Source: an uncultured Chloroflexia bacterium
Lineage (GTDB): Bacteria; Chloroflexota; Anaerolineae; CG2-30-64-16
Reading direction: 5' to 3'
Assembly (NCBI GenBank): GCA_963810095.1
Contig: CAWEMM010000008.1
Coordinates: forward strand, 32,001-96,000
DNA length: 64,000 bases
In this document: positions 11,975 to 50,917 of the stretch, one piece after another
Layout of the letters: every line of letters begins with the position of its first letter
Numbering within the stretch: the stretch's first letter is position 1
The notes under the pieces: generated by a model
The model's input: the letters and a program-made list of their open reading frames with translations, nothing else
Databases searched by the model: none
Told to the model about the DNA's origin: nothing
Position numbers and translations under genes: made by a program

Positions 11975-12138
11975 ACGCCCCTCCCCGTTTGTGTTCCTCA
12001 AGACAGAACCCGCCGGACCCTCCGTGTATGCTTCCCGAGTGAATGATATTTGTCGAGACACAGAAGAAGGTCATTCACAAATGCGATACTCACATATTCA
12101 CTAACGAAGTTCGTCACGATCGGGGAGCGAGAAGAAGA

Positions 12139-14015: not shown

Positions 14016-17000
14016 CGTCGGGCGCCCGGCCAAATGCTCCCGCCGCCGGCACCCCGGCGACCTTCCAGCGCCTGCTCGCGCAGGTGCTCGGGCAGCGCCG
14101 TCCGCCCTCGGCAACCTACCGCATGCAGTTCAACGCGGACTTCACGTTGGACCACGCGGTGGCGCTCGTTCCCTATCTCCACGATCTCGGCATCAGCGAC
14201 CTCTATGCGTCGCCCCTGTTCGCCGCTCGAGCCGGCAGCACGCACGGGTACGACGTGTGCGATCCGACACGGATCAGCATCGCCGTCGGGGGCGAGGAGG
14301 CACTGGACCGGCTGGCCCGGGTGCTGGGCGAACACGGGATGGGCCTGGTGCTCGACATTGTGCCCAACCACATGGGGATCAATGACCCCTGCAACACCTG
14401 GTGGCTCGACGTGTTGGAAAACGGGCCGAGTTCCCTGTACGCGCCGTTCTTCGACGTGGCCTGGGAGCCCTCGAAGCCCGAACTGAAGGACCGCGTCCTG
14501 CTCCCGGTGCTCGAGGATCAGTACGGCGCGGTGCTCGAAGCGGGAAAGCTGAAATTGGCTTTTGCGGAGGGCGGCTTCCGAATTGAGTATTATGACAACC
14601 GCTTCCCGGTGGCGCCGGGCACCTATGCGCCGGTTCTGCAAGAGTGGTTGGTCCAGCTGCGAGCGGCCGGCGATGGCGACGCCGGCGGCCGGGACGAAGC
14701 CGCGCTGGAGCTGGAGAGCATCATCACCGCAGTCGGGTATCTGCCGGGCCGGAACGAACGCGACGAAGAACGGAAGCTGGAACGCGCCCGCGAGAAGGAA
14801 AGCATCAAGCGCCGGCTGGCAGCCGTCTGGCAGTCAAGCCCGGCCGCCTTCGGCTCCCTCCAGCGGGCCCTGACCTACTTCAACGGCGACCCGCACGACC
14901 CCCAGAGCTTCGATCCGCTGGACGCGCTGCTCGAAAAGCAGCCTTACCGGCTCGCCTACTGGCGGGTGGCCGGCGAAGAGATCAACTACCGCCGCTTCTT
15001 TGACATCCGCGACCTGGCCGCGATCCGGGTCGAAGACCCCCGGGTGTTCGAGGCGACGCACGGGCTGGCGCTGCGCCTGCTGGCCGAGCGCAAGGTGACG
15101 GGGTTGCGCATCGATCACCCGGATGGCCTGTACGATCCGAGGGCGTACTTCCGCCGGCTGCAGCTGGAATACCTGCTCACGGCGCTGGGCCAGGACGGCG
15201 GCGATGGTGAAGCAGCGGCCCGCACGGCCGCAGAAGCCTGGCTCGATGCCGCGCTCGACGCCGCAGGTGAGGGCCGGCAGCAGGACTGGCCCCTGTACGT
15301 GGTGGCGGAGAAGATCCTGTCAGACACGGAGCCGCTGCCGCTCGACTGGGCCGTGGCGGGCACGACGGGCTACGATTTCCTCGCATCGGTCAACGCAGTG
15401 CTCGTGGATCCTGCGGCCGAGGACAGCTTCACGCGAATATATGCCGATTTCGCGACCCCGGCCGGGGCTGGCGCAGGGGCGGATTTCGAGGCGCTGACCG
15501 TGCAAACGCAGCGCCTGATCATGCGCGAGGCACTGGCCAGCGAGATCAACGAACTGAGCCACAGTCTCGAGCGGGTCGCGGAGCGGAACCGGCACACCCG
15601 CGACTTCACGCTCAACAACTTGCGTGACGCCATCCGCAGCCTCGTCGCCTCGCTCGGCGTGTACCGCACGTATATCGACCCCGAGACCAGGACGGTTTCG
15701 GAGCGTGACCGGCACTACGTCGTCGAGGCGGTCCAGCGGGCCGGGGCGCTCTCGCCACACATCGACCCGTCCGTGTTCCGATTTCTGCAAGAGACGCTGT
15801 TGTTGCAGAACCACGAACAGTTTCATGCGGAGGACCGGCTTGCTCTCGGCACCTGGGTCATGAAGTTCCAGCAGATGACCGGACCGGTGATGGCCAAAGG
15901 GGTCGAAGACACGGCCTTCTACCGCTACAACCGGCTGGTTTCGCTGAATGAAGTGGGCGGACACCCGTCGCTCTTTGGCATTGACCCCGGCCAGTTTCAC
16001 CGGGACAACGAGCGCCGGGCACGCCTGTGGCCCCACAGCATGCTGGCAACCTCGACGCACGACAACAAGCGCAGCGAAGATGTCCGCGCGAGGATCGACG
16101 TCTTGAGTGAAATGCCGGGCGAATGGGGCCAGCGCCTGCTGGAGTGGTCCAGCCTCAACGTCGGGCAGAAGGCGCGTGGCGGGGGGGCCGGCGAGCTGCT
16201 CTTGCCCGACCGCAACGACGAGTACCTGCTCTACCAGACGCTCCTCGGCGCGTGGCCGTTTGCCCAAGAGCCAGAACCCGGTTCGCCGTGGGGTCCGCTG
16301 CTGCCGCCCGGCGACAGCAGCGAGTACAGTGCGTTCGCCGCACGCATCGCCCAGTACATGAACAAGGCCGTCAAGGAAGCCAAGGTCCACGGCAGCTGGA
16401 TCAACCCGGACGAGGCGTACGATCGTGGCGCTCCACAGTTTCACCGCTGCACTGCTTGCGCCCGGCCCGGAGAACCGCTTTCTCCAGGCATTTGCGCCCT
16501 TTGCGGCCCGCATCGCGACCCTCGGGCAGGTCAACTCGCTCGCCCAGGTCGCGCTCAAGCTGACGTCGCCGGGCGTGCCCGACACTTACCAGGGCAGCGA
16601 GCTGTGGGACTTCAGCCTGGTCGATCCCGACAACCGGCGGCCGGTGGATTACGAGCGGCGCCGGGAGCTGCTGGCGGGGCTGCCCACGGCGGGGCCGGTC
16701 GGCGACGGGTTCCTGGCCGGGCTGCTCAGCGCGAGCCACAACGGCCGGATCAAGCTGTTCGTCACCGCCCGGCTGCTGGCGCTGCGCCGGGCCGAGCCGG
16801 GCCTGTTCGACGCCTCCGACTACGTGCCGCTCGAGGTGACGGGCAGCGGGGCGGAGCACGTCGTCGCTTTCGCCCGGCGCAGCGGCGGGAAGACGCTGCT
16901 CGTGATCGTGCCCCGGCTGGCGGCGGCGCTGGCGAATGCGGACGGCTGGCCGCTGGGGCCCGCTGCCTGGGGCGACACGGCCGTCATGTTGCCCAATGGG

Positions 17001-17120
17001 CTGCCCATGGACGGGCCGGTCGACGCGCTGACAGGGCGCCCCCTCCGACTCGACGGAGGCCACCTGCCCGTTGGCGAGGCGCTCCGGTCGCTGCCCCTGG
17101 CCGTGCTGGTGGGAGGATAG
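14012..17120 (+). CDS. treY: Malto-oligosyltrehalose synthase, frameshift near 16425
   Basis: ATYRMQF, GSTHGYDV, DIVPNHM, INYRRFFD, GLRIDHPDGL, AKGVEDTAFY, STHDNKRSED, PGVPDTYQGSE, LVDPDNRRPVD. Confidence 0.94.
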
Positions 17121-17143
17121 CGGGAGCGCCGTCGCCCGAGAAA

Positions 17144-17371
17144 ATCCTGAGCGGAGGGCGGTCCGCAGGAGCGCACGCTCGAAGGATGCCGCGCTCTTCA
17201 CAGCGACTGCTTGCGCTCAGATGCGCCAGACGTGGCGACTGCGGCACCCAGCTAAGCTGGCGCTCCGCTCAGGATGCCTGCGCTTGAAGCATCCTTCGAC
17301 TGCAGGCGGTCCGCAGGAGCGCACACCTTCCGGTTGGGGGGCGAGGCACCCGAGGGGTGCCTCGCCCCTAC
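17144..17371. repeat. Cluster of REP-like palindromes and a 20-bp direct repeat
   Basis: atcctgagcggag / ctccgctcaggat and tcgaaggatgc / gcatccttcga inverted pairs; ggcggtccgcaggagcgcac at 17157 and 17305; ggggcgaggcacc..ggtgcctcgcccctac hairpin. Confidence 0.6.
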
Positions 17372-22830: not shown

Positions 22831-24525
22831 TCATTTCAGCGGGATGTCCTTCAGGCTGCTTTGCGACAGCTGCGTATTCGGCTGGACGAACTGGTTTTGC
22901 AATAGCAGGTACGCTGTCACCTGCATGTACTGATCATCGGTGAGCGAGCCGGGCGCATCAAAAGGCATAGTGCGGTGGATGAAGCTGTACATCTCGCCCG
23001 CATCGCCGTATTTCTTCAGGTTCTCCTTCGTGCCCCAGAGGGCCGGCGCGGTGACACCTTGCCCCTCCGGCCCGTGACACGCAACGCACCGCTGGTACAC
23101 CGTCTTGCCCGAGGCGGCAAGCACGGCCGCCGTCTGTCCGCTGGCAGTCGCTCCGGCAGCAATTGGCGTGCCGCCAGTTGCCGCGGCTGCGGCCGGTTGG
23201 ACCGTCGGAACCGGCGTGGGCGTGGGCAAGGTCGCCGTCACGACGATGGGATGCGGCACATACGCGCCGTACACATATCCCTGCTGGTTCCACTTCTGCT
23301 TGGCGACGTCGTACTGCACGTTACCCTTGCTGTCGATCGCCCGGGGCGTGATCGTGCCTTGCCCTTCCTTCAGGTTTGCTTCAAACGTCCAGTGCACGCC
23401 CGCCTTCTCCGTGTTCGGCGTCTCCAGTTTTGCCAGCTGCCAGGTCTTGCCGCCGTCCAGGCTGACCTCCACCTTGGCAATCGTCCCGTTCGGCGACCAA
23501 GCCATGCCTTGGATTATCTGCCTGCCGGGCTGCAGATAGGCAGGCCACGGAAGCGCCACCGCACTCTTCATCACCTGCTCGTTCACGGGCGGCCCCTTGG
23601 CAGGCGTGCCTTGCGGGGGCGTGTAGTCCGGCCCAATGAAAACATAGCTGTTGGTGTTCTTATCCGTCCAGATAGGCTTTTCCGACACAGTGATCGACCC
23701 CACCCACTTGATGTTGTTGACGCCGACCCAGCCGGGTACAACAGTGCGCACGGGAAAGCCGTGGTCCCGCGGTAGCAACTCGCCGTTCATGAGGTAGGCC
23801 AGAATGACGTCCTCCTGCATGGCCTTGTCGACGGGGATCGGCCGCTCGACCTTAGGGCCATCCAGGCCGGTTGCCATGACCTGGATCGCGCTCTTGCGGA
23901 TCTTCGCACGGCTCAGAATCGCCGACAGCGGCACGCCCGTCCATTCAGCCACGCCGTAGGCACCAAAATGCCACTGCCCGCCTTGCGCGGGGTTGTTCAT
24001 CTGCGAGGTGTAGAAGGACCGGCCGTTGCCCGCGCACTCGACGTACCGCGTCACTTTGACGGAAGGCATGGCCAGGATGTCGTCGTAGGTGAGCTCGAGC
24101 GGGTTGTCGATACCGTCGCCCTTCACGATGAGCCGCCAGTTTGACACGTCGACAAACGGGGTGCTTTCGTGGCTGCGAACGAAGAAGAGCGAGTCAGGAG
24201 TCCGGTAGCCCTGGTCCACCGCTCGTTCGAGCCGGGTCTCGTAGTTTGCGCCGCCAATCGGGATGAAGAATTGCCCTGGTGTCGGTTTGAGGGTAGGTGG
24301 TCGGGACGGCGCCGCGTGCTGAGCTGCCGTCGTCCCGGCTGTCGCCGCAGCCGTTGGCGTTCCGGTTCCTGCCGCCGTCCCTGCGGCCGTCGTTCCGCTT
24401 GCGGCGGGCGCGGCAGTCTGCGCTGCGCTCGAACCTACCGCCAGGCCGGCTGCCCCGATCGCGGCGCCTCCGGCGCCCAGGGCAGTCAAGAAGTTTCGTC
24501 TGGATACGCGCTTTCTCTGTGCCAT
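22831..24525 (-). CDS. Tat-exported sulfite-oxidase-family molybdoenzyme fused to monoheme cytochrome c (SoxC-SoxD-like)
   Basis: SRRNFL Tat motif; FFVRSH, ECAGNGRS (Mo-Cys), DHGFPVR..VPGWVG..IKW; C-terminal CVACH and RTMPFDAPGSL..YMQVTAYLL. Confidence 0.88.
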   Translation of the reverse strand: MAQRKRVSRRNFLTALGAGGAAIGAAGLAVGSSAAQTAAPAASGTTAAGTAAGTGTPTAAATAGTTAAQHAAPSRPPTLKPTPGQFFIPIGGANYETRLERAVDQGYRTPDSLFFVRSHESTPFVDVSNWRLIVKGDGIDNPLELTYDDILAMPSVKVTRYVECAGNGRSFYTSQMNNPAQGGQWHFGAYGVAEWTGVPLSAILSRAKIRKSAIQVMATGLDGPKVERPIPVDKAMQEDVILAYLMNGELLPRDHGFPVRTVVPGWVGVNNIKWVGSITVSEKPIWTDKNTNSYVFIGPDYTPPQGTPAKGPPVNEQVMKSAVALPWPAYLQPGRQIIQGMAWSPNGTIAKVEVSLDGGKTWQLAKLETPNTEKAGVHWTFEANLKEGQGTITPRAIDSKGNVQYDVAKQKWNQQGYVYGAYVPHPIVVTATLPTPTPVPTVQPAAAAATGGTPIAAGATASGQTAAVLAASGKTVYQRCVACHGPEGQGVTAPALWGTKENLKKYGDAGEMYSFIHRTMPFDAPGSLTDDQYMQVTAYLLLQNQFVQPNTQLSQSSLKDIPLK

Positions 24526-24796: not shown

Positions 24797-25390
24797 ATGA
24801 GTGTCAGAGCTGACGGCACCGCATCCTGCAAAGAAGCTGGCCGCCGCAAAGCGGAACCCAAGTTGTTGATTCCGCTGATCGTTGCCTTCACAGGCATCGC
24901 CGTGGTGCTCGCCGGCCTCGTGCTTCTCGGACTCAACGGCTCCTCGTCGTCAGCCGCCGTCTCTGCGCCCCAGGTCGGCCGCCCGCTCGCTGATTTCACC
25001 TTGACCGACCTCTCGGGCAAGCAGGTGCACCTAAGCGACTACGCGGGGCGGCCGGTTCTGATCAATGCGTGGGCCACGTGGTGTCCGCCGTGCCGCGCCG
25101 AAATGCCAGATCTCCAGCAGTTGTACCAGCGGCACGAAGAAGAGGGGTTCGTCGTGCTTGCGGTCAATGCAGGCGAGGACGCCTCGATCGTAAAGAGCTT
25201 CATCCAGCAGAGCATGTTCACCTTCCCGGTGTTACAGGACCCGCAAATGGCGCTCCTCGATGGCTTCGGCGTCCGCAGCTATCCGACGTCGATCGTCGTC
25301 GGCAGGGATGGCAGAGTGAAGCTGGTGCAGGTGGGCATGCTCACGCCCGACGCGATCAAGGGCGTCGTGGAGCCGATGATAAGCCAGTAA
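24797..25390 (+). CDS. TlpA/ResA-like membrane-anchored thiol-disulfide oxidoreductase
   Basis: TM helix, INAWATWCPPCRAEMP. Confidence 0.9.
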   Translation: MSVRADGTASCKEAGRRKAEPKLLIPLIVAFTGIAVVLAGLVLLGLNGSSSSAAVSAPQVGRPLADFTLTDLSGKQVHLSDYAGRPVLINAWATWCPPCRAEMPDLQQLYQRHEEEGFVVLAVNAGEDASIVKSFIQQSMFTFPVLQDPQMALLDGFGVRSYPTSIVVGRDGRVKLVQVGMLTPDAIKGVVEPMISQ

Positions 25391-25402: not shown

Positions 25403-26298
25403 TCAGACGCTCTGCGTCTCGGTGAGTACATCGCGAAAAGCGCGCGCGGCCGGGCTGAGAGTACGACCGATAAGCCGCACCCGCGTAAAGGTGCGGCGCA
25501 TATCGAGGCCTTTAATCGGCAGAATCACGAGTCTGCCGAGGCGGAGTTCATCGACGATCGTCGCGCGCGAGACGATCGCCAAACCCAGTCCGGCGGCAAT
25601 TGTTTCCTTGATCGCCTCCGTGCTGCCCAGCTCTACCGTATGCTTCAACTGAATCCCTCTCTGGGCGAGCGCGGCTTCGCCGACTTCGCGCGTGCCTGAA
25701 CCCACCTCGCGAATTAGGAACAGCTGGTCTTCCAGCATGCTGGCCGGCAACGGTTCTGCAGCCGCGGTGCGGACAAGGGGATGGCCTGGGGCTGCGATTA
25801 GGACCAACTCGTCAGGCCGCCACGCTTCACACTCGATGCGTTCGTCGGCGACCGGTCCCTCTACCAGCGCGACGTCCAACTGGTACTCGAGGAGCAGGCC
25901 CAGGATGGTCTGCGTGTTCTGGATCGTGAGGCGCAGGTCGATAGCCGGATGGCTGCTCAGAAAGGCCGCAATGACCGGCGGCAACAAGTAGGCCGCAATC
26001 GTCGTGCTCGATCCGACGCGGAGAGTGCCGCGGTGCAAGCCCCGCAGTGCCTGCAAATCCTCTTCGGCAGTCTGCTCGACAGATAGGATCGCGCGCCCCG
26101 CTCAGCCAGCAGCGCACCCGCCTCGGTAAGAGTCAGCTTGCCCGCGGCGCGCTCGAACAACGGCACACCCAACTGGTTCTCGAGTTCCTTCACGGCCTTA
26201 CTCACGGCGGGCTGACTGATGTACAGAACCTCGGCAGCGCGCGAGAAGCTCATGTGCTGAGCCACGACGGTGAAGATCCGCAGCAGATGCAGCTTCAT
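25403..26298 (-). CDS. LysR family regulator (CysL/YeiE-like), frameshift near 26090
   Basis: SFSRAAEVLYISQPAVSKAVKELE HTH; substrate domain GSSTTIA..REVGSGTR..LGSTEAIK. Confidence 0.9.
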
Positions 26299-32896: not shown

Positions 32897-33808
32897 TTAT
32901 TTGCCGAAGATCGGCACGCCCAGCTTCAGTTCCAGCGCGCCCTCGCGCGGGCACTCGTCGATGCACTCCAGGCAGCCGATGCAGTCGACGCTCTTGATCG
33001 TCGTCACCTCATGGACCGGCAAGCCCATCGGGCAGGCCTTGGTGCAGATGGCGCAGCTCTTGCAGGCATCGGACTCGCGCTTCAGATAGAACGGGCTGAG
33101 CTTGCTCACCAGCCCGGTTGCCGCGCCCAGCGGGCAGGCGTACCGGCAGAACGGCCGCTCGACAAAGAGCGAGGCGATCAGGACGACGATCAACACGAGC
33201 GTGCCGAGACCGAGGCTCAACTCCAGCAGCCCCCACAGCGCCGCCCATGGGTCGGCGTCACGGAAGACCATGAAGCCGTAGAGGGCGGTGCCAATTAGCG
33301 TCCATGCCAGGACGCCGTACTTCAGGAAGCGCAAGTAGCGATCGAGCACCGCGAGCTTCTTGCCACGGGTTTTCAATGTCTTGACGGCTTTGCGAACCGG
33401 GTAGACCTTCTTCTGGACGAACGCAGAAAAGCTACTGATCATGTCCTGGATGAAGCCGAACGGGCACAACCAGCCGCAGAAGCCATTGCGGGTAACGAGC
33501 GCGACGGCCAGGGTGGCGACCAGCACGACCATATTCGAGAGATGGACGTGGGGGACAGTCTTCCCGCCAGATGCGATGAACGTATACAGGCTTTCCAAGC
33601 CGCCGAACGGGCAGTAGGCCTCCCAAGAGGCGGTCGTGATGGCGCCGTTCTCGCCGACGATGGCATGGCGGATCGCCATGACGAAGATGAACAGGAACAC
33701 GCCCAGCTGGATGAGCCGGCGGAACGTGTGGTGGGTCAGCAGTGCAGCCAGCCCCTTGCGGCGGGGCTTGACTTTACCAAAAGGAGTAGGACGTGCGATG
33801 GTGGTCAT
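32897..33808 (-). CDS. Membrane 4Fe-4S binding protein (NapH/MauN-like)
   Basis: EAYCPFGG, FCGWLCPFG, FCRYACPLG, CKSCAICTKACP, CIGCLECIDECP. Confidence 0.9.
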   Translation of the reverse strand: MTTIARPTPFGKVKPRRKGLAALLTHHTFRRLIQLGVFLFIFVMAIRHAIVGENGAITTASWEAYCPFGGLESLYTFIASGGKTVPHVHLSNMVVLVATLAVALVTRNGFCGWLCPFGFIQDMISSFSAFVQKKVYPVRKAVKTLKTRGKKLAVLDRYLRFLKYGVLAWTLIGTALYGFMVFRDADPWAALWGLLELSLGLGTLVLIVVLIASLFVERPFCRYACPLGAATGLVSKLSPFYLKRESDACKSCAICTKACPMGLPVHEVTTIKSVDCIGCLECIDECPREGALELKLGVPIFGK

Positions 33809-34044
33809 GTTCTCTCCACACTTAACGGGTTGGATCGGCAATTAATGGATTCTTACTGCAAATGCTCGCTTGCAGATTGCGCTAATTGACATCCTAGCGA
33901 AAAGCAGCGAAGAAGCGGTGCGGGAGATATGAAGATGTCATGAAAAGTGCCGGGCGTTACGAGCGCGCACCCGGTCTTGTAACTTCCTGAACGTACCTGC
34001 ATCTCACCGCGTGGAACTTCCATCAATCTATCGAGGAGCTCACC

Positions 34045-34809: not shown

Positions 34810-34841
34810 AACAGCCAGGCGTCTGCCTGGCTGTTGCTTTT
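34810..34841 (+). terminator. Intrinsic terminator
   Basis: aacagccagg cgtctg cctggctgtt gctttt. Confidence 0.7.
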
Positions 34842-35066: not shown

Positions 35067-36521
35067 CTAGATGAGCACTACCGAGCCGGTCAGGTCTGCT
35101 TCCACGGCAGGGGTGCGGGCGAAGAGGTGTGCCATAGCGTCGGCAGCCCGGACGCCCGTCTCCTCTCGATGGGTGCCGTATCTCGGGCCGACGCCCTGCT
35201 CCGTGACGTAGGCGACGTGGTAGCGCCTGCTGGCTGAAACGGGCTCGTCGCCCACATACAGCTCCTGCACACGCTGGCCCTGCGGATTTTCCGCCTTCGC
35301 ATACAGCTTGACGCCCGCCATGCGCTTCAGGTACCCGCCCATCTGCCCGTACGGGTCCCGCGACAGCGTGCGCTCGAGGTTCTCCTCCAGCATCTCGCGT
35401 ATCTCTTCGCCCGTTAGCTCGACGGTCATGACCGGTGGGTTCATCGGAATGATGTTGTAGAGGTCGTTGACAGTCACCGGGCCGGGTGGGATCGGCGCGC
35501 CATACCGCCAGCCGTTCGAGAAGGCAACCTCAGCGCCGGTCGCCCGGAGCAGGCTCTGCAGGAGCACGTTGTCCATCGTGGACTCCAGCATGGTATTGCG
35601 GTTCAAGGCTGTCGCCGTCCGGCCGACCACACGGTCGAGCTCGCCGCGGAACGAACGCATCAGATCGTCCACCTGGGCTTGCATCTCCGGGTCCGGCGCG
35701 ATCTCCTCGCCCACAGTAATCAGCCGGTGGTCCCAGCCCGTCACTCGGCCGTCCTCCACTCGCAGGTCAAGGCGGCCAAGAAACGAGCCGTGGCTGCCGG
35801 ACTGGATGATCACCGTGCGGCCCACGATGGCCGGGCGATAGAGGCGGTTGTGCGTGTGGCTGCTGAGGACGACGTCCGGCGCCGCACCTTCTGCGCCCAG
35901 TTCCTCCGCCATCTGCATGTCTTGCGGGAAGCCGAGGTGCGAGAGGGCGACGACAAGGTCGACGTGCTCCTCGCGGCGCAATCGCCTGACCCCCTCGGCC
36001 AGCTCGTCCTTGCCGAGTGTGAAGCGCACGCCTTCGCTGAAGTGCGGGGGCATCGTCTTGTCGACGATGTTGGAGGCCAGGCCGACTGCGCCGACGCGGA
36101 GCCCTCCCGCCTCGAACACCCTCCGACCTTCGAACACCGCCGCGCCCGTCTCCTTCTCGTAGACGTTGCTTGCGAGCAAGGGATAGCTGAGCTGACCGGC
36201 GACCTTCTGCAGATGCTGTGGCCCGTACGCGAACTCCCAGTGGGCGGTCATCGCGTCGAACGCGAGTGCGTTGAGCAGCGGCACGAGTCCCTCGCCCTTG
36301 GTTTTCACGGCTGGGTACGTGCCGTGGATCGTATCACCGCCGTCGAAGGCGAGGACCGCGCCGGGCCGCTCGTTACGAATCTGCTTCAAAAGGGCCGCGA
36401 TCCGGGCATAGCCCCCCGCCTTGCGATACACGGCCCCGGACGCGGTCCAGAACAGCTCATTGTGCAGCTCGACGTAGCCGTGGCTGTCGTTGAGCTGCAC
36501 CAATGTCAGGTTGCGCTCCAC
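35067..36521 (-). CDS. SoxB-like metallophosphoesterase/5'-nucleotidase-fold protein without signal peptide
   Basis: NDSHG, DGGDT, AHWEF (SoxB-type, not GNHEF), LSHLG, SHTH, SNGWRYG, DPYGQMGG. Confidence 0.8.
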   Translation of the reverse strand: MERNLTLVQLNDSHGYVELHNELFWTASGAVYRKAGGYARIAALLKQIRNERPGAVLAFDGGDTIHGTYPAVKTKGEGLVPLLNALAFDAMTAHWEFAYGPQHLQKVAGQLSYPLLASNVYEKETGAAVFEGRRVFEAGGLRVGAVGLASNIVDKTMPPHFSEGVRFTLGKDELAEGVRRLRREEHVDLVVALSHLGFPQDMQMAEELGAEGAAPDVVLSSHTHNRLYRPAIVGRTVIIQSGSHGSFLGRLDLRVEDGRVTGWDHRLITVGEEIAPDPEMQAQVDDLMRSFRGELDRVVGRTATALNRNTMLESTMDNVLLQSLLRATGAEVAFSNGWRYGAPIPPGPVTVNDLYNIIPMNPPVMTVELTGEEIREMLEENLERTLSRDPYGQMGGYLKRMAGVKLYAKAENPQGQRVQELYVGDEPVSASRRYHVAYVTEQGVGPRYGTHREETGVRAADAMAHLFARTPAVEADLTGSVVLI

Positions 36522-37937
36522 TAGCGCACCTTTGCCCGGGCGCCGTGGCCGTTCAAGGATATCTCCAACCCGGCCTGCTGCCAGGCCACCGTGCCGCCAA
36601 GGACGTTGTAGACCTTCTTGAAGCCCTTCTGCCCCAACAACGCGGCGGCCGACTGGCTGCGGTTGCCGTGTGCGCAGATGACCGCGACCGGCTGTGTCTC
36701 GTCGATCTCGGCTACGCGGTGCGGCAGTTGGCCAAGGGGAACGTTCACTGCGCCGGGAACGTGGCCCTGGCTGAACTCCCAGGGTTCCCGGACGTCAAGA
36801 ACGAACGGCGCCCGCTCCTCCTTCAGCATGCCCGCGAGCCGCGCCGGCGTCACGTCCTCGACATCGCCCGAGGCTACCGGCAGGCGGTGGCTGCGCCACG
36901 CCTGCATGCCGCCCTCGAGATACCCCACGACCTTGTCATAGCCGACGCGCGCGAGGGCCATAACCACGTCGCGGTAGACCTTCTCGTCGTCCAGCAGCAG
37001 GATCAACGGCTGGCCGGGCTGCAGGACGAACCCGGCCGCGGTTGCTCACCTGGTTATCGGCCTCGACGTGCACCGAGCCGGGGACGTGCTCCGCGATGTA
37101 AGCGGCCTTCGACCGAATGTCGAGCAGGCCGGCGCCCTGGCGGAAATAGGGCACCGCATCCTCGAGCGACAGGGCCACCGGCCGGACTTCGCCGAGCGGC
37201 GCCGGGCCACGCCGGTTCATGGCCTTAATACGCTGGTGGTTGCCCGGCTGCTCCGGTAGGTTCGTGGTCATGTACTCGACGAACGCTTCCTTGTCAGTGA
37301 CCTGCAATGAAGGGTTGTGCTTGCGTTCGAAGCCGAGCGTCGTGCTCCGCACGCTGCCGATCGCGCGGCCGCACAGCGAGCCCGCTCCATGACCAGGGTA
37401 AATCAGTAGGGCGTCCTCCAGCTTCATGACCTTGTCGAACAGGCTCTCGTGAAGCTGGCCGGCGAGGTCACGCGCTGCGTCGGCGCCGACCAAGTCCGGG
37501 CGGCCCACGTCGCCCACGAAAAGCAGGTCGCCAGTCAGGGCCATCCAGGGCTCAGCCGAGCGGGTACTGTCGGCAATAAGAAGGGTTATGCTCTCGGGCG
37601 TGTGGCCCGGCGTTGCTGCCACCTGTATGCGGACCGCACCCAGCTCCAGCACATCACCGTCGTGCAATGGCTGGTGCGCGAACTTCGCCTCGGCAGCTTC
37701 GTGGATGAAAATCGTCGCGCCCGTCCGGGCTGCCAGGTCCGTGTTGCCCGAAACATGATCGGCATGCAGGTGGGTCTCGATGATGTGCGTTATCTGCATA
37801 CCCCGGCGCTGCGCGGCGTCAATGTAACGCTCGACGTCACGGTCCGGATCGATCACGGCCGCGATGCCCTTGGCTTCGCAACCAACCAGATACGAAGCGC
37901 ACCCCAACCCTTCCACAAAGAACTGTTCTACGTACAT
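36521..37937 (-). CDS. Persulfide dioxygenase (MBL fold) - rhodanese - rhodanese fusion (CstB-like), frameshift near 37035
   Basis: ETHLHADHVSG, TPGHTPES, GDLLFVGDVGRPDL, GHGAGSLCG; C-terminal rhodanese CAHGNRS. Confidence 0.88.
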
Positions 37938-37946
37938 GTTACTTCC

Positions 37947-38722
37947 TCACACAATCAACTTAGGCAAGTTGTCCTTCAACAGAAAGACGCCCAGCACGAT
38001 GACGAACAATGCGAATGCCTGCTTGAGACGGGCCGCTGGCAGACGGTGCGCCAATCTCGAGCCGACAAAGGTGCCGCCCAACCCGGCGGCGACAAACACC
38101 ATAGTGAGGCCCAGGTCGAAAGGTCCCCGGGGGACACGCCCTGGTCCAAATGGCCCAGCAACCCGGCCGCGCTGTTCGCCGCAATGATGATAAGCGACGT
38201 GCCGACGGCCTGGTACATGGGCAGGCCGACGAGCATCACCAGCGCGGGCACGATCAGGAACCCGCCCCCGACCCCGAGGATCCCCGTAAGCAGTCCAACG
38301 CCGGCGCCGGCCAGCAGCGTCACCCACCACGGCCGCGCCTGGCCCGCTTCGCCTTCGCGCCCCCGGCGCAACAGCATCAGGACGGCGACCACCAGCATCA
38401 GGACGGCGAACGCGACGAGCAGTGCCGCGGACGAGAAATGCTTTGACAGACCCGCCGCCATGTACGCGGTGATCATACCCGCGCCGCCGAAGATCGCTGC
38501 CACCTTCCAGTTCAGCGTCCCTTGCCCGCCGTGGAAGGCCGCACCGATGAGGCTGTTGCCGCCGACAATAGCGAGCGAAGTGGTCACCGCCGCTTGCGGC
38601 GATTGGCCCACGAGGTAGACCAGCGCGGGCACGGTGAGGATGGACCCACCGCCCCCGAGAAGACCGAGCGATAGCCCGATAGCAAAACCCAACACCAGAT
38701 CCAGCGGAACTCCTGTCAACAC
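37947..38722 (-). CDS. TauE/SafE sulfite exporter, frameshift near 38135
   Basis: GLLGGGGSILTVPAL, GVGGGFLIVPAL, AVGTSL. Confidence 0.9.
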
Positions 38723-43820: not shown

Positions 43821-44502
43821 GCGTCGACGCTAGCCTTCGCTTCCAGCCCCGTGCGGTTGGCGATGCGGATCTGGTGGCGGTCAACCTCGATCAGCCCTTC
43901 AGCGACCAGGGTGCGGAGGGCCCGGTTGAGCACGTCGGGAACGGTGCCCAGCCGGTTGGCCATCTCACCTTGAGTGGCCCACCGACGCCTGGGGACAACA
44001 TCCGTCGTTCGCATTCTCAACCAGCAGCCGCGCCAGCCGGGCCGTGACGGTGCGCAGCGACAGGTCTTCCACTAACGAAAGTAGTTGCAGCGCGCGGCCG
44101 GCCAGGGTTTGGACCACCAGCGTGGCGAAAGCTGGCTGCTCGAGCAGCCCCAGCACGGCAGCTGCGGGGATGAACCAGACCTGCGCCAGTTCGAGCGCTA
44201 CGACAGTGGACGCATTCGGCCTGCCGGCAAACATGGTGAAGTCGCCGAACACCTCGCCCGGGCCGACGACTCGCAGCGTCTGTTCTCGTCCGGAAGGCGA
44301 CGACTTGAGGGACCGCAGCCAACCGCTCTCGACCACGTGCATGCCCGTGCACGGTTCTCCCTCGAGGAGGACGATCTGGCCGGCCTCGTAACGCCTTGGG
44401 ACGGCAGTGCCGGCAAGGATCGAGCAATTGGGCCTGGTCGAGCCCGGCGAAATAGGGAACTTGCGACAGAAGGTGGACTGGCATGCCCATCGTCATGTGC
44501 AT
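43817..44502 (-). CDS. Crp/Fnr family regulator (multiple frameshifts)
   Basis: LLSQVPYFAGL, SPSGREQTL, LVEDLSLRTVTARLA, TQGEMANRLGTVPDVLNRAL, spread over several frames. Confidence 0.8.
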
Positions 44503-44804: not shown

Positions 44805-45065
44805 TCATGCCCCGGTCCAAGCCGTTGCGCTCGTTTTGGCGGACGTTAGGGCCTCCGGCCAGAACACGAAGTACGCGATCGGCCCGGCGAAGCTGACGGA
44901 CGCGGCCAGGGTCCAGAGCCGCCTGTCGCCTCTGATCCTGTCTGCCGGGCGATGCCAGATATCCCAGAGTGCCATGGTCAACAGCTTGAGCTGCACGGCT
45001 GCCGCGATCTTGATCGCATTCCGTTGCCTCTCCGTCAAATCGTTCCACGTTTTTCGCTGCGTCAT
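44805..45065 (-). CDS. Small membrane protein (PLDc N-terminal-like)
   Basis: ALWDIWHRPADRIRGDRRLW..GPIAYFVF. Confidence 0.6.
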   Translation of the reverse strand: MTQRKTWNDLTERQRNAIKIAAAVQLKLLTMALWDIWHRPADRIRGDRRLWTLAASVSFAGPIAYFVFWPEALTSAKTSATAWTGA

Positions 45066-45412
45066 GGTAAGTCCCCTTTAGCAAGTCCGTCCGTAGGTTC
45101 GCCCAGGTCGTCGCGAATCAGCCCCCGCGGCCGGATGCCGACGCGCCAGGCCGCGGCGGCGAGCGCATGCGATGCGGTCGGGGCGCCGAGAATCAGCAGC
45201 AGGATCAGAACCGCGGCCTTCCCCGCGCCCAGCGGCGTCAGCAACGTCGCCGCGACGAGCAGCAGGACGACGCCAAACACGCTCACCTTGCCTGTCGCAT
45301 GCAGCCGCGTGTAGACGTCGGGCAGGCGGATAAACCCGATCACGCCGACCAGGGAGAAAGCAGTTCCGACGAGGACGGCCAGGATGGCCAGCACGAGCCA
45401 GATCTCTTCCAT
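45062..45412 (-). CDS. mnhG: Mrp/Mnh antiporter subunit G
   Basis: RLPDVYTRLHATGK..APTASHAL. Confidence 0.92.
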   Translation of the reverse strand: MEEIWLVLAILAVLVGTAFSLVGVIGFIRLPDVYTRLHATGKVSVFGVVLLLVAATLLTPLGAGKAAVLILLLILGAPTASHALAAAAWRVGIRPRGLIRDDLGEPTDGLAKGDLP

Positions 45413-45691
45413 CTAGAACATCCTCTCATCGGCCACGTATTTCGCCAGCGCGATCGCGCCGACGAAGCCCAGCGCAGCCAGGCCCAGCGCCACGTCGATG
45501 TACAACGCGTTCCGTTCGATCACGGCGATCAGAACCAGGATCGCCAGCATGAGCGTCGTGACCAGGTCAGCGCCAATCAGGCGGTCGATGAGGTTTTCTC
45601 CGCGCCAGACGCGATAGACGCTAACGGCAATCAGCGCCACGTGGATGCCCAACGAGATGCTCAGGACGAACGCCAGGACCTGCTCGAGCAT
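45413..45691 (-). CDS. mnhF: Mrp/Mnh antiporter subunit F
   Basis: DRLIGADL..YIDVAL..LGFVGAIALAKY. Confidence 0.9.
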   Translation of the reverse strand: MLEQVLAFVLSISLGIHVALIAVSVYRVWRGENLIDRLIGADLVTTLMLAILVLIAVIERNALYIDVALGLAALGFVGAIALAKYVADERMF

Positions 45692-45708
45692 GCGCGAACA
45701 CGTCGCTC

Positions 45709-46192
45709 CTACTCCAGAATGTGGCTCAAGCAGCCGCCTGCGCAAGGAGTGCGCCGCGGCGATGGTCTCCTCCGCGTGCGACGCGTCCAGGCAGTGGACA
45801 TAGAGCGTCGCCCTCGTCGTCGACGCCGACCACCAGCTCGCCCGGCGTCACTGAGAGGGCATGGCTGCTGAGCGCGACGCCGAGCTCGCTCTCGCACTCG
45901 GAGGGTATCGCGAGGATGCCGGGCCGGATCGGGAGCCGGGGATTGAGGACGATGGCCGCCACGCCGATACCGCTGCGCACGATATCCAAGGCGAGCAAAC
46001 CGGCATAGCGGGCCAGCGCCCACAACGCCACCGGCAGGCGCCGCAGTCCTCACCGGGGAGCTTGCCGGTCGCAGGAGGAACGCAACGAACGCGGCAATCA
46101 GAAGCCCAACGAACACGTTGTTCCATGCCAGGTTGCCTGACAGCGCCAGGTAGATGGCCGTCACGACTCAGGATCGTCCAGACGTAGCCCAC
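45709..46192 (-). CDS. mnhE: Mrp/Mnh antiporter subunit E (frameshifted)
   Basis: PIRPGILAIP..SVTPGELVV. Confidence 0.85.
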
Positions 46193-46200
46193 CTCTCCCC

Positions 46201-47683
46201 CTATCCGCCCAACACGGCCGCGATATACGATGCGGGCGAGAGCAGCGACGCGCTCACCGCCAGCGACAGGCGCAGCAGTGGCTCGGCCCACAGCCCCAGG
46301 AGCACGCACAGCCCGATCAACAGGGCCGGCGCGACGAGATGATCGCCCGCCGGCTTGGCCTTGTGCCCTTCGGGGAGCGGCTCCCACCAGATGAGCTGGA
46401 AGGCGCGGATCACATACAGCAACGTCAGGATGCCGCCCACGCCGACCAGGAAGACGGCCACGAAGTGCTCGGCCGAGATGCCGCTGCCGAAAACGAGCAG
46501 CTTGCTCACGAAGCCATTCATCGGCGGTATGCCGGCGAGCGCCAGCCCGCCGAGCAGGAACAGGCCGCCGGCAAAGGGCGCGGCCTTCCCAACGCCCGTA
46601 AGTGCGGAAAAGGCGGCCGACTTCGGCGACGCCCGGCTCGCCATCGCGCCGGCCAGCATCAGCATGCCGGCCTTCACGAGGCTGTGATTGACAGTGAAGA
46701 CGATGGCAGCCGTGATCGCGAGCGGCGAGCCCCAGCCGATCGCGACCAGGATGTAGCCGACCTGCGCCAGGGTCGAGTACGCCAGCATCCGCTTGGCGTT
46801 AGTCGCGCCCAGGGCCGTCAGCCCGCCGAAGAGCACGCCGGCCACGCCGAGCACAATCAGCAAGGGCCGCAGCGGGAAAAGCCCTTCCGGGAGCAGCAGC
46901 GTGGTCATGCGCAGGAAGCCGTAGACGCCGACCTTCACGACGACGGAAGAGAGCATGGCGCTGACGGCGGTCGGCGCGGCCGTATGGAAGTCGGGCTGCC
47001 AGAAGTGGAAGGGCACGACCGCGCTCTTGATCATGAAGAAGGCGGTCATGAGCGCCACGGCCGCGGGCAGGAGCGGCGCCGCGGGCTGGGCCGCGATGCG
47101 GCGAGCAAGGTCGGCCAGGTTGAGCGTGCCGTACGACGCGTACAGGCTGCCGGCACGCGAGCAGGAGCAAGACGCCGGCGACCAGGCTCATGTAGAAATA
47201 CTTGTAGGCGGCTTCCACGCCCAGCCGGTCATCGGCCAGGGCCGTCAGACCTGCGCCGGAGATGACAAGGAGCTCGGAGAAGACGAAGATATTGAACAGG
47301 TCGCCGGTGAGCATGACGCCGGTGAGACCCGCACAGAGGGTCAGGAACAGCGGGTAGAACGCCGGGTAACGGATGCACTGGTCGCCTGCGCCGAGGCTGT
47401 AGATGATGCCGGCGACGATCACGGCCTGCGACATGACGGCCATGGTCGCGCCCAGCAGATCGGCCGCGAAAGTGATGCCGTACGGCGCGGGCCAAGTCCC
47501 GAGCTGATAAACGACCGGCCGGCCCTGAGCGCCACACCTCGGCCAACAGCGACGACTGGCTGACGCGCAGGACACCAGTGCGGCGGCGAGCGCCCAGTAG
47601 CCGGCGCCGCGGCCCAGCCGGCGGGCGGCGAGCGCCAGCACCGCGCCGAAGAGCGGGATCAGGACCGGCAAGAGGACGAGCAT
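46201..47683 (-). CDS. mnhD: Mrp/Mnh antiporter subunit D (frameshifted)
   Basis: TGDLFNIFVFSE, KSAVVPFHFWQPD, KRMLAYST, LAGIPPMNGFVSK. Confidence 0.9.
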
Positions 47684-47684
47684 C

Positions 47685-48017
47685 TCAACCCTTCATCCCC
47701 GCGACCTCGTCGGAGTCGCTCGTGCGGTAGCGGATCGTGATCACGTAAACCAGGGCCAGGATGAAGGAGAAGGCCGCCATGCTGATCACGATGGCGGTCA
47801 GGATGAGCGCCTGCGGCAGCGCGTCGCTGCGTTGCCCGGTCGCCGTCGCGTACGCGGGAATGAGCCCCTGGTAGGCGCCGGTTGCGAGCAGGAACAGGTT
47901 GACCGCGTTGGACAGCGCCATGACGCCGATGGCCGAGCGCAGCACGTTGCGGCGGAGCAGCTGGAATACGCCGATGCCAAAGAGCGCGCCGATCGCCAGC
48001 GCCTTCAATAGATCCAT
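47685..48017 (-). CDS. mnhC: Mrp/Mnh antiporter subunit C
   Basis: SNAVNLFLL..DALPQALILTAIVI. Confidence 0.92.
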   Translation of the reverse strand: MDLLKALAIGALFGIGVFQLLRRNVLRSAIGVMALSNAVNLFLLATGAYQGLIPAYATATGQRSDALPQALILTAIVISMAAFSFILALVYVITIRYRTSDSDEVAGMKG

Positions 48018-48022
48018 CTTGC

Positions 48023-50917
48023 CTACTGCTCCATTTCCACCGGCCGGTCCTTCGGATGGCCGATCGCTTCCAGGATGAACGAGACGCCGCCGAGCACGGC
48101 GGCGAAAATGGCGACCTCGAAGACGAACGACGTGCTCAGATGGAAGCCCGCGGGCAGGACCAGGCCGGCGGCTTTCCCGTAGTCGAACTGGGCGAAGAAC
48201 TCGTCGGCGAGAAACGCAGCCAGCGTGCCGTTCACCAGCGCGATGAGCAGGCCGCCGACTATCATGCGGGCGGGGCGCAGCCACCAGAGCTGGCGCTGGG
48301 TCTCGGCATACCCGAAGACGACGTACCAGAACGAGACGGCCAGCCCGACGATGACAGCCGCGGTAAACCCGTCGCCGCCCTGGTTATGGCCGTACATCAT
48401 CTGGACCGCGGCGAGGACCAGGCTGAGCGGCAGCAACGCATAGCCCAACACCCGCACAAGCGGCGAGGTCCGGCCGCCCGAAATGCCCAGGATACGCGGG
48501 ACATCGCTCCGGGCGTCGTTGCGAACCTCGTCCGGGCGCAAGACATGTGCCGGCATCCAGGGCTTGTGCGCCGCATAGCGCAGCAGGGTGTACACGGCCA
48601 GCCCGGCCATGGCGAATACGGCGATCTCGATGAGCGTGTCGAAGCCGCGAAAGTCGATCACGACGGCGCCCACGATGTCGGCCGCGCCGACGGCCGGCTT
48701 GGCGTTGGCCTCGTAGTAGGGCGTCACGGCCGACGGCCGCGGGCGCGAGGCGAGCGCAACGAGCGCCAGCGACGCGACGAGCAACCCGGCGCCCGTGGCG
48801 ATCGACGGCATCGCGGATCAGGCCGGGCCGGCTCTGCGCGAAGGTGAACTCAGAGGCCCGCTCGCGCTCGGCACGCGGCAGGTTGCTCAAAGTGAGCGTC
48901 AGGATCACGACGCTGAGCAGGTCGACAACCACCTGCACGAGCGCAACGTCGGGCGCAGGCTCGAGGGCGATGATCACCGCGACGGCAAGCCCGGACGCAC
49001 CAAGCGCCAGGATCGCGGGAAAATCACGGCGCAGGAAGACGCTGAGCAGCGCGGCGCCGGCGGCGAGCAACAGGGTGAACAGCCGCAGAATCGCCAACTC
49101 GTCCGTCAGGTCCAGGGGCGCAAGCTGAGTGGGCAGCGGCACGCCGCCGAACAGCACCACCAGCGCCAGTACGCCGGCAATGATCACGAAGAGGTACCGG
49201 CGGAGCTGGCCGCTCTGCGTACGGGTCGCGAGCGCACCCGCCGCGTCGAGCCCGGCGATCACGCCGTCGTAGACCTGGTTGAAAGAGAAACGGCCGCTGA
49301 GCGAGCTGGCAGCGAGGCGGGCGCGCAGGGGGTCGCGGAAGATGAACAGCAGCGCGCCGATGCTGATGGCGATCGGCGCTCAGAATCAAGGGCGGGTTAA
49401 TACCGGTCCAGAAGGCCAGCGAGACCTTGACCGGCGCGCCGTATGCGGCGCCCGCCGCAGCGGCCAGAAAGCCGGCCAGGAAGGCAGGCTCGGGCCCGAT
49501 GCCGACGAGCAACGAGAGCAGCGCGGGGATCGCGGGCGTCGCGATCATCGGCCAGGGCGCCTCGTGGCCGCGCACGGACGGATCACGCGGGCGGCCGAAG
49601 AACGTATCCCACACGAACAGGCCGGCCTGCGCGAGCAAGAGCGCGCCGGCGGCCACTGCCGCGGCCGGAAAGAGCAAGTTGAGCGCGGCGGGGACCGCAG
49701 GATGGATCACCGTGGCGAGCAGGGTCTCCTTGGCCAGGAAGCCGAAGAGGGGCGGCAGGCCGGCCATCGAGAGCCCGGCGATGATGCGCAACCTCGGCCG
49801 TTACGGGCATCCACCGGCGCAACCCGCCCAGCCGCCGGAGATCGCGGGTGTGGGCCTCGTGATCGACGCTCCCGGTGACGAGAAAGAGCGCGCTCTTGTA
49901 GAGCGCGTGGGCGAGGACTGCGATGACCAGGGCCTTGAACGCGATGTCCGTATCCTGGCCGATCAGCATCACCATGGCGCCCAGTTGGCTGATCGTCGAG
50001 TATGCCAGGAGGCCCTTGAGATCGTTCTGCCGGAAGCCCTGGTACGCGCCGAGCAGCATCGTGACCAGGCCGACGAGGCTGAGCGTCCAGAACCAGGCAT
50101 CGGTTTGACCGATTGCCGGGTTCATCCGGGCGAGCAGGTAAATGCCGGCCTTCACCATGGTGGCCGAGTGCAGATAGGCGCTCGCGGGCGTCGGCGCGGA
50201 CATCGCTTCGGGCAGCCAGATGTGCGCCGGGAACTGCGCGCTCTTGGTGAAGGCGGCAAAGGCAAACAACCCGAAGACGGGGAGATACCACGGGCTGCTG
50301 CGCAGCAGGGCGCCACTGGATAGGACGGTCTGGAAATCGACTCCGCCGGCGATCGAACCGACCCAGACCACGCCCGCCAGGAGCGCGATCCCCCCGCCGC
50401 CCGTGATGAAGAGCGACTTCATGGCGGCTGCCCGCGCTTTCGGGTCCTTCTGCTTGTACCCGATGAGCAGGAAAGAGGTGATGCTCGTGCACTCCCAGCA
50501 GAACCAGAGGGTCACGAGGTCGCCGGCCAGCACGAGGCCGAGCATGGCCGCCATAAACAGGAACAGGTACGCGTAGAAGCGCGGCGCCGAGGGGTCGTCC
50601 GCGAGATAGTAGCCGGCATAGATGACGACAAGGGCGCCAATGCCGGTGACCAGGAGCGCAAACAGCCCGGCCAGGCCATCGAGGTAGAACGAGACGCTGA
50701 GGCCGAGCGACGGCATCCACGGGAGGGCCAGCGTCTCAGGGGGCGCGCCTTTTGCGGGAATGAGGGACAGCAGCAGTATGAAGGCGAGGGCTGGCAGCAA
50801 GGCCAGGACCCAGCCGGCCACTCGGGGCGAGACGCGGCCGAACCACGCACGCCAGGCAACTGCAACGAGTGCGCCGGCGAGGCAGAGCAGTAGCGGGACC
50901 AGCAGCGTGACGTCCAT
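48023..50917 (-). CDS. mnhA: Mrp/Mnh antiporter subunit A (A+B fused; frameshifted)
   Basis: TKSAQFPAHIWLPEAMSAPTPASAYLHSATMVKAG, APDVALVQ, DFRGFDTLIE, GHNQGGDGF. Confidence 0.9.

Follow-up and report, generated by a model that had tools for sequence, protein, structure and literature searches.

The 64,000-nucleotide stretch analysed here (the window; contig CAWEMM010000008.1 of an Anaerolineales genome) carries on its minus strand, at 38722-35067, three tightly packed genes. They encode a TauE/SafE-family anion exporter, a CstB-like persulfide dioxygenase (PDO) with two rhodanese domains (PDO-Rhd-Rhd) and a signal-less, SoxB-like dinuclear metallohydrolase of 484 aa. On balance we consider that the third gene specifies a cytoplasmic, SoxYZ-independent sulfohydrolase of the SoxB type, releasing sulfate from a terminal -S-SO3 group. 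The gene is real, intact and well conserved, the family to which it belongs is uncharacterised, and the mechanism proposed for it is plausible. An earlier note on this DNA had seen in the three genes a compact cytoplasmic route to sulfate, in which the hydrolase would act on a Cys S-sulfonate of its CstB-like partner. The genes, their overlap and the diagnostic motif held up, the size of one gap and the intactness of two frames did not. Likewise, the SoxB-like character, the lack of a signal peptide and of SoxYZ and SoxA, and the pairing with a PDO found support, and the plain Cys S-sulfonate as substrate did not.

That the third gene (35067..36521, minus strand) is SoxB-like rather than nucleotidase-like is supported by profile searches, motifs, tree and fold. 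The protein contains the Pfam domains 5_nucleotid_C (PF02872, 84.3 bits) and Metallophos (PF00149, 23.2 bits). Its best NCBIfam model is SoxB (TIGR04486, 333.7 bits over model positions 106-517 of 556, below the cut-off of 550), ahead of a cyclic-nucleotide phosphodiesterase/nucleotidase model (NF006934, 135.4 bits) and UshA (116.9 bits). Among PDB sequences, the SoxB of T. thermophilus (2wdc, 160.9 bits) precedes the E. coli protein 3ivd (123.9 bits) and UshA (~70 bits). An AlphaFold2 model, built from a 36-row alignment (pLDDT 92.9, pTM 0.91), retrieved SoxB structures first in Foldseek (TMq 0.90-0.91, top hit 2wdd), with 3ivd at 0.83 and nucleotidases at 0.83-0.86. The identity is 32-37% to the products of annotated plasmid soxB genes (tblastn) and 24-25% to T. 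thermophilus SoxB in the fold alignment.

The N-terminus reads MERNLTLVQLNDSHG, and the first metal motif, D12-x-H14, begins 11 residues past the start codon. The metal motifs D-x-H, G-D, H195 and H222-x-H224 are kept as in the UshA/CD73-type nucleotidases, whereas the nucleotidase signatures GNHEF and NxGGIR are absent, with AHWEF and SNGWRYG in their place, as in SoxB. The HWEF motif that the earlier note had reported instead of GNHEF was recovered as TAHWEF at residues 92-97, and its H94 and W95 are invariant in 36/36 family members. H94-W95-E96 is common to the clade of ~480-aa proteins that includes the window's protein (the fam480 clade) and to true SoxB (6/6 rows); other SoxB-like groups have N-W-D/E at this position and the 26 nucleotidase rows N-H-E. 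The clade and true SoxB also share D60, R308, D317, S335-x-G337-x-R339-x-G341, P390, Q393, G395 and R400. H94-W95-E96, S335/G337/R339/G341 and R400 are not the majority residue in the 26 nucleotidase rows, which, together with 3ivd, keep GNHE and GGIR (GNHEF and NsGGIR in 3ivd). In PDB entry 4uwq, a trapped SoxB-SoxYZ complex, the Trp of HWE is replaced by Cys in the deposited sequence. Taken with the title of the entry, this would fit a position of the Trp at the site of the carrier Cys, and the roles of individual active-site residues rest on the alignment and on that entry.

A tree of 57 rows was made of 18 clade members, six SoxB proteins annotated on plasmids, seven other SoxB-like proteins from three groups and 26 other members of the 5'-nucleotidase family; six short or partial rows (L002, L003, L004, L006, L110 and L118) had been dropped. 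A branch with a support of 98 (approximate likelihood ratio test, SH-aLRT) separates SoxB and all SoxB-like rows from the 26 other proteins, so that the protein lies on the SoxB side and not with the nucleotidases, in agreement with the earlier note. The SoxB-like assemblage (95) and true SoxB (100) are sister groups; within the former, the ~480-aa proteins form one monophyletic clade (100), and the window's protein falls beside true SoxB, not inside it. The six annotated soxB genes from plasmid records served as the reference for true SoxB because a 101-genome sample of the phylum of genome G001 contained none above the cut-off. The 26 outgroup rows come from that one-phylum sample and the tree from a quick IQ-TREE search (LG+G4), and its deep branch order should therefore be read with care.

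No signal peptide was found at the N-terminus of the protein or of the other clade members. The six annotated SoxB proteins start with a twin-arginine (Tat) motif, RRE(F/L) or RRDF, which the SoxB-like protein lacks, and two secreted SoxB-like paralogues carry Tat or lipoprotein signals. The 91 open in-frame codons 5' of the start, which overlap the rhodanese reading frame, are rich in Arg, Pro and Gly and have no hydrophobic stretch; the earlier note had described a protein without Tat or Sec signal that begins at its catalytic domain.

The absence of soxY, soxZ and soxA, noted before for the window, extends to the genome (6.13 Mb, 16 contigs, 88.5% complete). A search of this 88.5% complete assembly found no SoxY, SoxZ or SoxA; for SoxX only sub-threshold cytochrome matches were seen, and no protein reached the SoxB cut-off. 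In five other family-bearing genomes, among them that of the isolate Pontibacter roseus, SoxY was found in 0/5 and true SoxB in 0/5, their SoxB-like members scoring 329-359 bits against TIGR04486.

The family is widespread. A protein search gave 3080 matches among 8000 scored candidates; the 120 matches listed are 360-485 aa long, show 57-100% identity and come from Chloroflexota, Methanoculleus and others. Their source names are split between 'SoxB' or 'S-sulfosulfanyl-L-cysteine sulfohydrolase' (JGI) and '5'-nucleotidase' or 'bifunctional metallophosphatase/5'-nucleotidase' (NCBI). When one genome for each species was scanned, 254 stretches were confirmed, and 79 loci were kept. These belong, in the bacteria, to Anaerolineae, Desulfobacterota, Nitrospirota, Bacteroidota (many of them Pontibacter), Bacillota, Planctomycetota and more, and in the archaea to Methanothrix, Methanobacterium and Methanoperedens. 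Across bacterial phyla and methanogens the clade keeps a length of ~480 aa and an identity of 53-63% outside the genus. Among relatives of the window's genome the gene is patchy (3/40, two of these three being among seven genomes of the same genus). Together with its occurrence on conjugative plasmids, this marks the module as accessory and probably mobile.

The pairing of a signal-less SoxB-like gene with a PDO-rhodanese gene recurs. In tblastn searches with the window's proteins a PDO-Rhd gene was found within 6 kb in 10/79 loci, in both orders and in several phyla, and directly adjacent in seven: upstream in L007, L014, L016 and L027, and downstream in L019, L020 and L024. The loci with PDO-Rhd belong to Anaerolineae, Peptococcaceae, Acidaminobacteraceae, Pirellulales, an FCB-group bacterium and Methylomirabilota. 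Unbiased clustering of the neighbours combined with Pfam revealed a set of recurrent sulfur genes, encoding PDO-Rhd or rhodanese, DsrE-like proteins, YeeE (Sulf_transp), sulfur oxygenase reductase (SOR) and TauE. Genes for TsdA/CCP-type cytochromes, YeiH, TlpA and DoxX, and further for a P-type ATPase, DUF202, catalase and DJ-1, recur as well. Since greedy picking of open reading frames (ORFs) miscalled high-GC loci such as L007, the clustering counts are lower bounds, and the counts given here are those of tblastn. With a fixed query set, PDO, Rhd, TauE, SOR, DsrE or YeeE was found within 6 kb in 30/79 loci (PDO in 10, Rhd in 19, TauE in 6, SOR in 5, DsrE in 15 and YeeE in 6), and TsdA/CCP-type cytochrome genes lie within 6 kb in 14/79.

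The surroundings (+/-6 kb) of 20 other 5'-nucleotidase-family genes served as a control. A sulfur gene was found in one of these 20, as against 22/45 clade loci of at least 12.5 kb (Fisher p 0.0005), a comparison limited by queries that derive from the clade's own loci and so favour finding the genes in them, by a control drawn from a single phylum and by the non-independence of related genomes. Without Pontibacter and Hymenobacteraceae, 11/34 clade loci remain against 1/20 (Fisher p 0.02).

In five loci (L022, L023, L045, L048 and L072) the SoxB-like gene is directly preceded by a SOR gene (PF07682, with 500 bits in the L023 representative), and in all of these except L072 the order is SOR, SoxB-like, TauE. 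In L023, L045 and L048 TauE is followed by a signal-less paralogue of 505 aa, of the GNHD type. Larger islands are found on plasmids. That of Sphingobium pANTQ-1 contains genes for DsrE, ArsR, a peroxiredoxin, a metallo-beta-lactamase (MBL)-fold protein, YeeE, DUF6691, a phosphatase-flavoprotein fusion and TauE, and further for TlpA, DsbA, the SoxB-like hydrolase of the clade, a binding protein, cytochrome bd, a 455-aa MBL-fold protein and DUF202. A plasmid of Pontibacter akesuensis contains three paralogues with rhodanese, a YeiH-type exporter, DsrE, DoxX and YeeE. The clustered trio (L125 4156-11085 on this plasmid; likewise G004:C2:397391-404236) consists of a secreted 550-aa protein beside a c-type cytochrome, a signal-less 481-aa protein with HWE and a 506-aa GNHD protein. 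More distant SoxB-like genes adjoin cst-like sets (TusA/DsrE/MBL/TusA/TauE) in Sporosarcina and Cohnella, and TauE with an MBL-fold or rhodanese gene in haloarchaea.

Two other arrangements were seen. In ~10/79 loci (L012, L018, L034, L049, L051, L059 and others, including Methanothrix and Methanoperedens) a gene for a type-II P-type cation ATPase of ~830-890 aa lies directly upstream, often with DUF202 or DsrE-like genes alongside; the ATPase may supply metal to the SoxB-like enzyme. In L021, L031, L054, L075 and L078, which come from metagenome-assembled genomes of Nitrospirota and Desulfobacterota, the gene follows a run of three cytochrome c genes, of which one is of the CCP/TsdA type; DUF202 and an ActD-like gene are sometimes present too. 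Among the longer proteins (848-2420 aa) no fusion of the SoxB-like protein with a PDO or a carrier was found, which is weak evidence. An 899-aa protein with PF02872 and PF00873 (source name SecF) was set aside as a fusion candidate, being probably a gene-call artefact.

The middle gene of the operon (36521..37937, minus strand) encodes a protein with Lactamase_B (60.1 bits) and a C-terminal Rhodanese domain (98.3 bits), the motif THLHADH, the loop PGHGAGSLCG and the rhodanese loop CAHGNRS. Its intact orthologue in L007 (P0121, 471 aa) aligns end to end with 3tp9 (289 bits) and over its full length (residues 1-447) with S. aureus 3r2u (212 bits), which we take to be CstB. The P-G-H-G-A-G-S-L-C-G loop (C189-G190) and the rhodanese residues C421/R426/S427 are invariant in 36/36 PDO relatives. 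The protein thus combines an MBL-fold PDO, a Cys-Gly loop and a C-terminal rhodanese with Cys, as in a CstB-type PDO-Rhd-Rhd, and the label 'CstB-like' given to it before is justified. In the available part of a 2026 preprint (PMC12934615), CstB is described to S-sulfonate the loop Cys of its own Cys-Gly pair, which agrees with the protein-bound S-sulfonate that the earlier note called established. According to the same portion of the preprint, the S-sulfonated mobile loop moves ~27 A to the rhodanese site and hands its sulfonate to the persulfidated rhodanese Cys, with thiosulfate as the end product (PMC12934615). The first gene (37947..38722, minus strand) matches PF01925 at model positions 3-204 in its first ORF (143.5 bits), and a C-terminal piece (31 bits) covers the model end (188-237) in another frame.

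ORFs, Pfam domains and the positions of stops and starts bear out the three coupled genes at 35067-38722. The stop codon of the PDO gene (TAG) and the GTG start of the SoxB-like gene share one base, 36521, as had been reported; the gap between the TauE stop (TGA, 37949-37947) and the PDO start (ATG, 37937) measures 9 nt and not 10. A Shine-Dalgarno-like GAGGAAG (37942..37948, minus strand) overlaps the TauE stop, 4 nt 5' of the PDO ATG. A terminator-like hairpin with an 11-bp stem and a T-rich tail (34810..34835, minus strand), ~230 nt past the SoxB-like stop, likely marks the end of the operon, as judged from a consensus match of which the region has four against 3.0 expected. A promoter scan gave 0 sites. 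Three RNA runs contained only 5-7% of the sampled words.

Some 1.2 kb downstream of this hairpin, at 32897-33841 (minus strand), lies a gene for a NapH/MauN-type membrane ferredoxin (TIGR02163, 93.9 bits, below the cut-off). About 10.5 kb from the operon, at 22831-24525 (minus strand), a 564-aa protein is encoded, a molybdopterin oxidoreductase that has a cytochrome c domain at its C-terminus and resembles the sulfite dehydrogenases SoxC, SorA and SorT (TIGR04555, 230.9 bits, below the cut-off of 420); it is followed by a thioredoxin/AhpC-like gene (24797-25390, plus strand).

The earlier note had missed that two of the three genes are frame-broken in this assembly. In alignments with the relatives L007 and L014, the TauE gene has an insertion of 14 nt at ~38128-38141, which splits it into ORFs 37976-38722 and 37947-38330 and puts the end of the PF01925 match in another frame. 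The PDO gene has an insertion of 1 nt at ~37036-37038, within the first rhodanese domain, and lacks a single intact frame (ORFs 36936-37937 and 36521-37006). In L007 and L014, whose SoxB-like proteins are 82% and 73% identical to that of the window, each of the three genes is one uninterrupted ORF, and the gene order is that of the window. Either assembly errors or strain variation may account for the insertions, and there are intact alleles: among short-read contigs of the public run X2, record 11 (36923-37074) is without the extra PDO letter and record 13 (37999-38258) without the 14 TauE letters, the evidence being one contig per site (depth 2 and 3.5), otherwise near-identical to the window. 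Other genes of the window seem truncated or split as well, for instance at 25403-26056 (minus), 43965-44342 (minus), 45062-50917 (minus) and 12043-17287 (plus). Examples are a LysR substrate domain without its helix-turn-helix, a partial cyclic-nucleotide-binding domain, fragmented subunits of an Mrp/Mnh antiporter and a pair of long ORFs that overlap in different frames. These genes suggest an indel-prone assembly rather than a decay specific to the operon.

In the mechanism that we propose, the CstB-like PDO-Rhd-Rhd would oxidise persulfide sulfur with O2 to the level of sulfite or thiosulfate. The hydrolase, a two-metal enzyme that probably uses Mn, would cleave the terminal sulfonate of R-S-SO3(-) or R-S-S-SO3(-) to sulfate, converting a thiosulfonate-level species to sulfate and a thiol or persulfide, and TauE would export the oxyanion. 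What we infer here are the reaction, substrate and metal of the hydrolase and the direction in which TauE transports. Possible substrates would be an -S-S-SO3 bound to Cys or to a low-molecular-weight thiol, an S-sulfonate, free thiosulfate or a polythionate. The accessible text of PMC5336275 reports that the SoxY thiosulfonate (Cys-S-S-SO3) reaches the metals of SoxB and is a good substrate, that SoxY-S-sulfonate is too short to do so, is a poor substrate and does not sustain the pathway, and that SoxB cleaves trithionate in vitro. Because of these results, as far as that text goes, thiosulfonate-level substrates are favoured over a plain Cys-S-sulfonate, which the earlier note had proposed and which appears the less likely of the two adducts. 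Candidates would be the adduct of a CstB-type sulfonate with the rhodanese persulfide, or of tetrathionate with a thiol. Given the SOR, DsrE, YeeE and TsdA-like partners, and the loci where no sulfur gene was detected nearby (27 of the 51 of at least 10 kb), a substrate tied to one partner is unlikely; judging from the sequences, the variety of partners and the high conservation would argue for a generic or small substrate.

Four alternatives were weighed. If the hydrolase docked on the CstB-like protein and cut the C189 S-sulfonate or the C421 thiosulfonate, the module would yield sulfate, not thiosulfate. The one-base translational overlap that couples both genes, the direct adjacency in 7/79 loci in both orders and the Cys-Gly loop and rhodanese Cys that never vary in 36/36 PDO relatives agree with such a partnership. 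So do the protein-bound Cys adduct on which true SoxB works (the 4uwq complex) and the mobile S-sulfonated loop of CstB, reported to travel ~27 A to the rhodanese site (PMC12934615). We nevertheless regard docking as doubtful: 69/79 family loci lack a PDO, other partners (SOR, DsrE, a lone rhodanese, YeeE) occur and yet the family is 53-63% identical throughout, an S-sulfonate without a sulfane atom is too short for the metals of SoxB in the accessible portion of PMC5336275, and the weak evidence of the missing fusions points the same way. A complex prediction for the SoxB-like and PDO-Rhd-Rhd proteins of L007 (36-row alignments) gave a score of 0.00 and a mark of 0.32, which speaks neither for nor against binding. 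Hydrolysis of free thiosulfate or of free polythionates (tri- or tetrathionate), with no dependence on what the PDO produces, would be in line with the cluster and deletion phenotype of Erythrobacter flavus 21-3 (PMC7608252, in the part available), with the cytochrome genes of the TsdA/CCP type near 14/79 loci and with the cleavage of trithionate by SoxB in vitro in the available text of PMC5336275. TsdA, however, is periplasmic and the SoxB-like protein has no signal peptide; the TsdA-like cytochrome of Pontibacter adjoins the secreted 550-aa paralogue and not the 480-aa one, the deleted E. flavus gene need not be a member of the clade, and the window's operon has no TsdA-like gene. This substrate is in our view unlikely.

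A decaying module, with TauE and PDO as true pseudogenes and a hydrolase left behind without its partners, would explain the two frame-breaking insertions, the longer of which (14 nt) is no simple homopolymer slip, and the patchy presence (3/40 relatives). An X2 contig without the insertion at each site, two intact relatives, the further split genes expected of an indel-prone assembly and a whole, highly conserved hydrolase ORF make it quite unlikely. Very improbable is an ordinary cytoplasmic nucleotidase or phosphoesterase, acting on nucleoside monophosphates, UDP-sugars or the sulfonucleotides APS and PAPS, for which the sulfur neighbours would be coincidental or sulfonucleotide-related. 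Its 5_nucleotid_C and Metallophos domains, the NCBI name 'bifunctional metallophosphatase/5'-nucleotidase' of members, the end-to-end alignment with E. coli 3ivd (123.9 bits) and the often co-located 505-aa GNHD-type paralogue are what such an enzyme would show. The change of GNHEF to AHWEF and of N-x-G-G-I-R to SNGWRYG as in SoxB (3ivd keeps both nucleotidase motifs), the position in the tree on the SoxB side and the sulfur genes near 22/45 family loci against 1/20 nucleotidase-paralogue loci speak for a different activity.

Several observations weigh against the SoxYZ-independent sulfohydrolase that we favour. The clade is present in methanogens and further strict anaerobes, and there the O2-dependent PDO and SOR cannot supply the substrate. 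With a carriage of 3/40 among the relatives the gene is accessory, in 27/51 loci of at least 10 kb the query set used detected no sulfur gene nearby, and the control comparison has the biases given above. The score lies under the SoxB equivalog cut-off and the protein outside the true SoxB clade, so that the chemistry is extrapolated, and both genes upstream of the hydrolase are frame-broken in this assembly. The literature search found no activity data on any clade member, nor a description of the signal-less SoxB-like family or its link with PDO, SOR or DsrE; in the soxB literature, 5'-nucleotidases were mentioned only as outgroups or false positives (two papers).

It is possible, and we propose it tentatively, that the clade as a whole represents a widespread cytoplasmic sulfohydrolase of thiosulfonates and S-sulfonates. 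Acting with CstB-like dioxygenases, SOR, DsrE, rhodanese carriers and the transporters YeeE/TauE, it would convert sulfane sulfur to sulfate without SoxYZ and without a sulfite-oxidising redox enzyme; in anaerobes, among them methanogens and sulfate reducers, a version of this route would operate as well. In heterotrophs, the detoxification of sulfide by SQR, PDO and rhodanese is considered to stop at sulfite or thiosulfate, and sulfate formation is usually credited to the periplasmic Sox system, the APS route or SoeABC/Sor enzymes. If real, a hydrolase that removes sulfonate groups in the cytoplasm would be a redox-free last step to sulfate, and it could in addition repair, or detoxify, thiols that sulfite has S-sulfonated. 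The module moreover poses the question whether a partner enzyme can redirect the thiosulfate output of CstB. Surveys of soxB by KEGG orthology or loose profile models may credit the Sox pathway to Anaerolineae, methanogens, Desulfobacterota and Bacteroidota that have no SoxYZ; if the broad reading is true, many metagenomic 'soxB' calls in such lineages mark cytoplasmic chemistry, not Sox.

Compared with known systems, the clade protein shares with SoxB the two-domain metallophosphoesterase/5'-nucleotidase fold, HWE, S-x-G-x-R-x-G and R400. It differs in being ~80 residues shorter, in having no Tat signal, in its score (334 against a cut-off of 550), in a genome where no SoxYZ or SoxAX was found and in having cytoplasmic sulfur genes as neighbours. 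With the UshA/CD73-type nucleotidases and E. coli c4898 (3ivd) it has in common the superfamily, the domain order and the metal motifs, whereas its SoxB-type residues set it apart, on the opposite side of the branch supported by 98. The S. aureus cst operon resembles that of the window in pairing a TauE-family exporter with a PDO-Rhd-Rhd, the window's PDO being homologous to CstB over its full length and having both the Cys-Gly loop and the catalytic Cys of the rhodanese. To our knowledge the cst operon has no SoxB-like gene. The window adds a translationally coupled hydrolase downstream, whereas the end product of CstB is thiosulfate in the available preprint text (PMC12934615).

The closest experimental precedent is the TsdA/SoxB-like/Sdo cluster of E. 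flavus 21-3. As described in the accessible part of PMC7608252, this thiosulfate-induced cluster encodes TsdA, three SoxB-like '5'-nucleotidases' ('SoxB' D0Y83_01365 and two paralogues) and the MBL-rhodanese protein SdoA, in a genome without a Sox complex; deletion of one SoxB-like gene abolished the sulfur globules and lowered sulfate, and the authors propose hydrolysis of free tetrathionate. On that text, the likeness lies in SoxB-like proteins that occur without a Sox complex, clustered with an MBL-rhodanese dioxygenase and with a role in the formation of sulfate and S0. The layout also resembles that of the Sphingobium and Pontibacter islands that hold clade members, and the Pontibacter trio matches the three SoxB-like genes of E. 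flavus. The two systems differ, as far as the accessible text goes, in the substrate, proposed there to be free tetrathionate from a periplasmic TsdA, which the window lacks; the role of the hydrolase in E. flavus rests on genetics.

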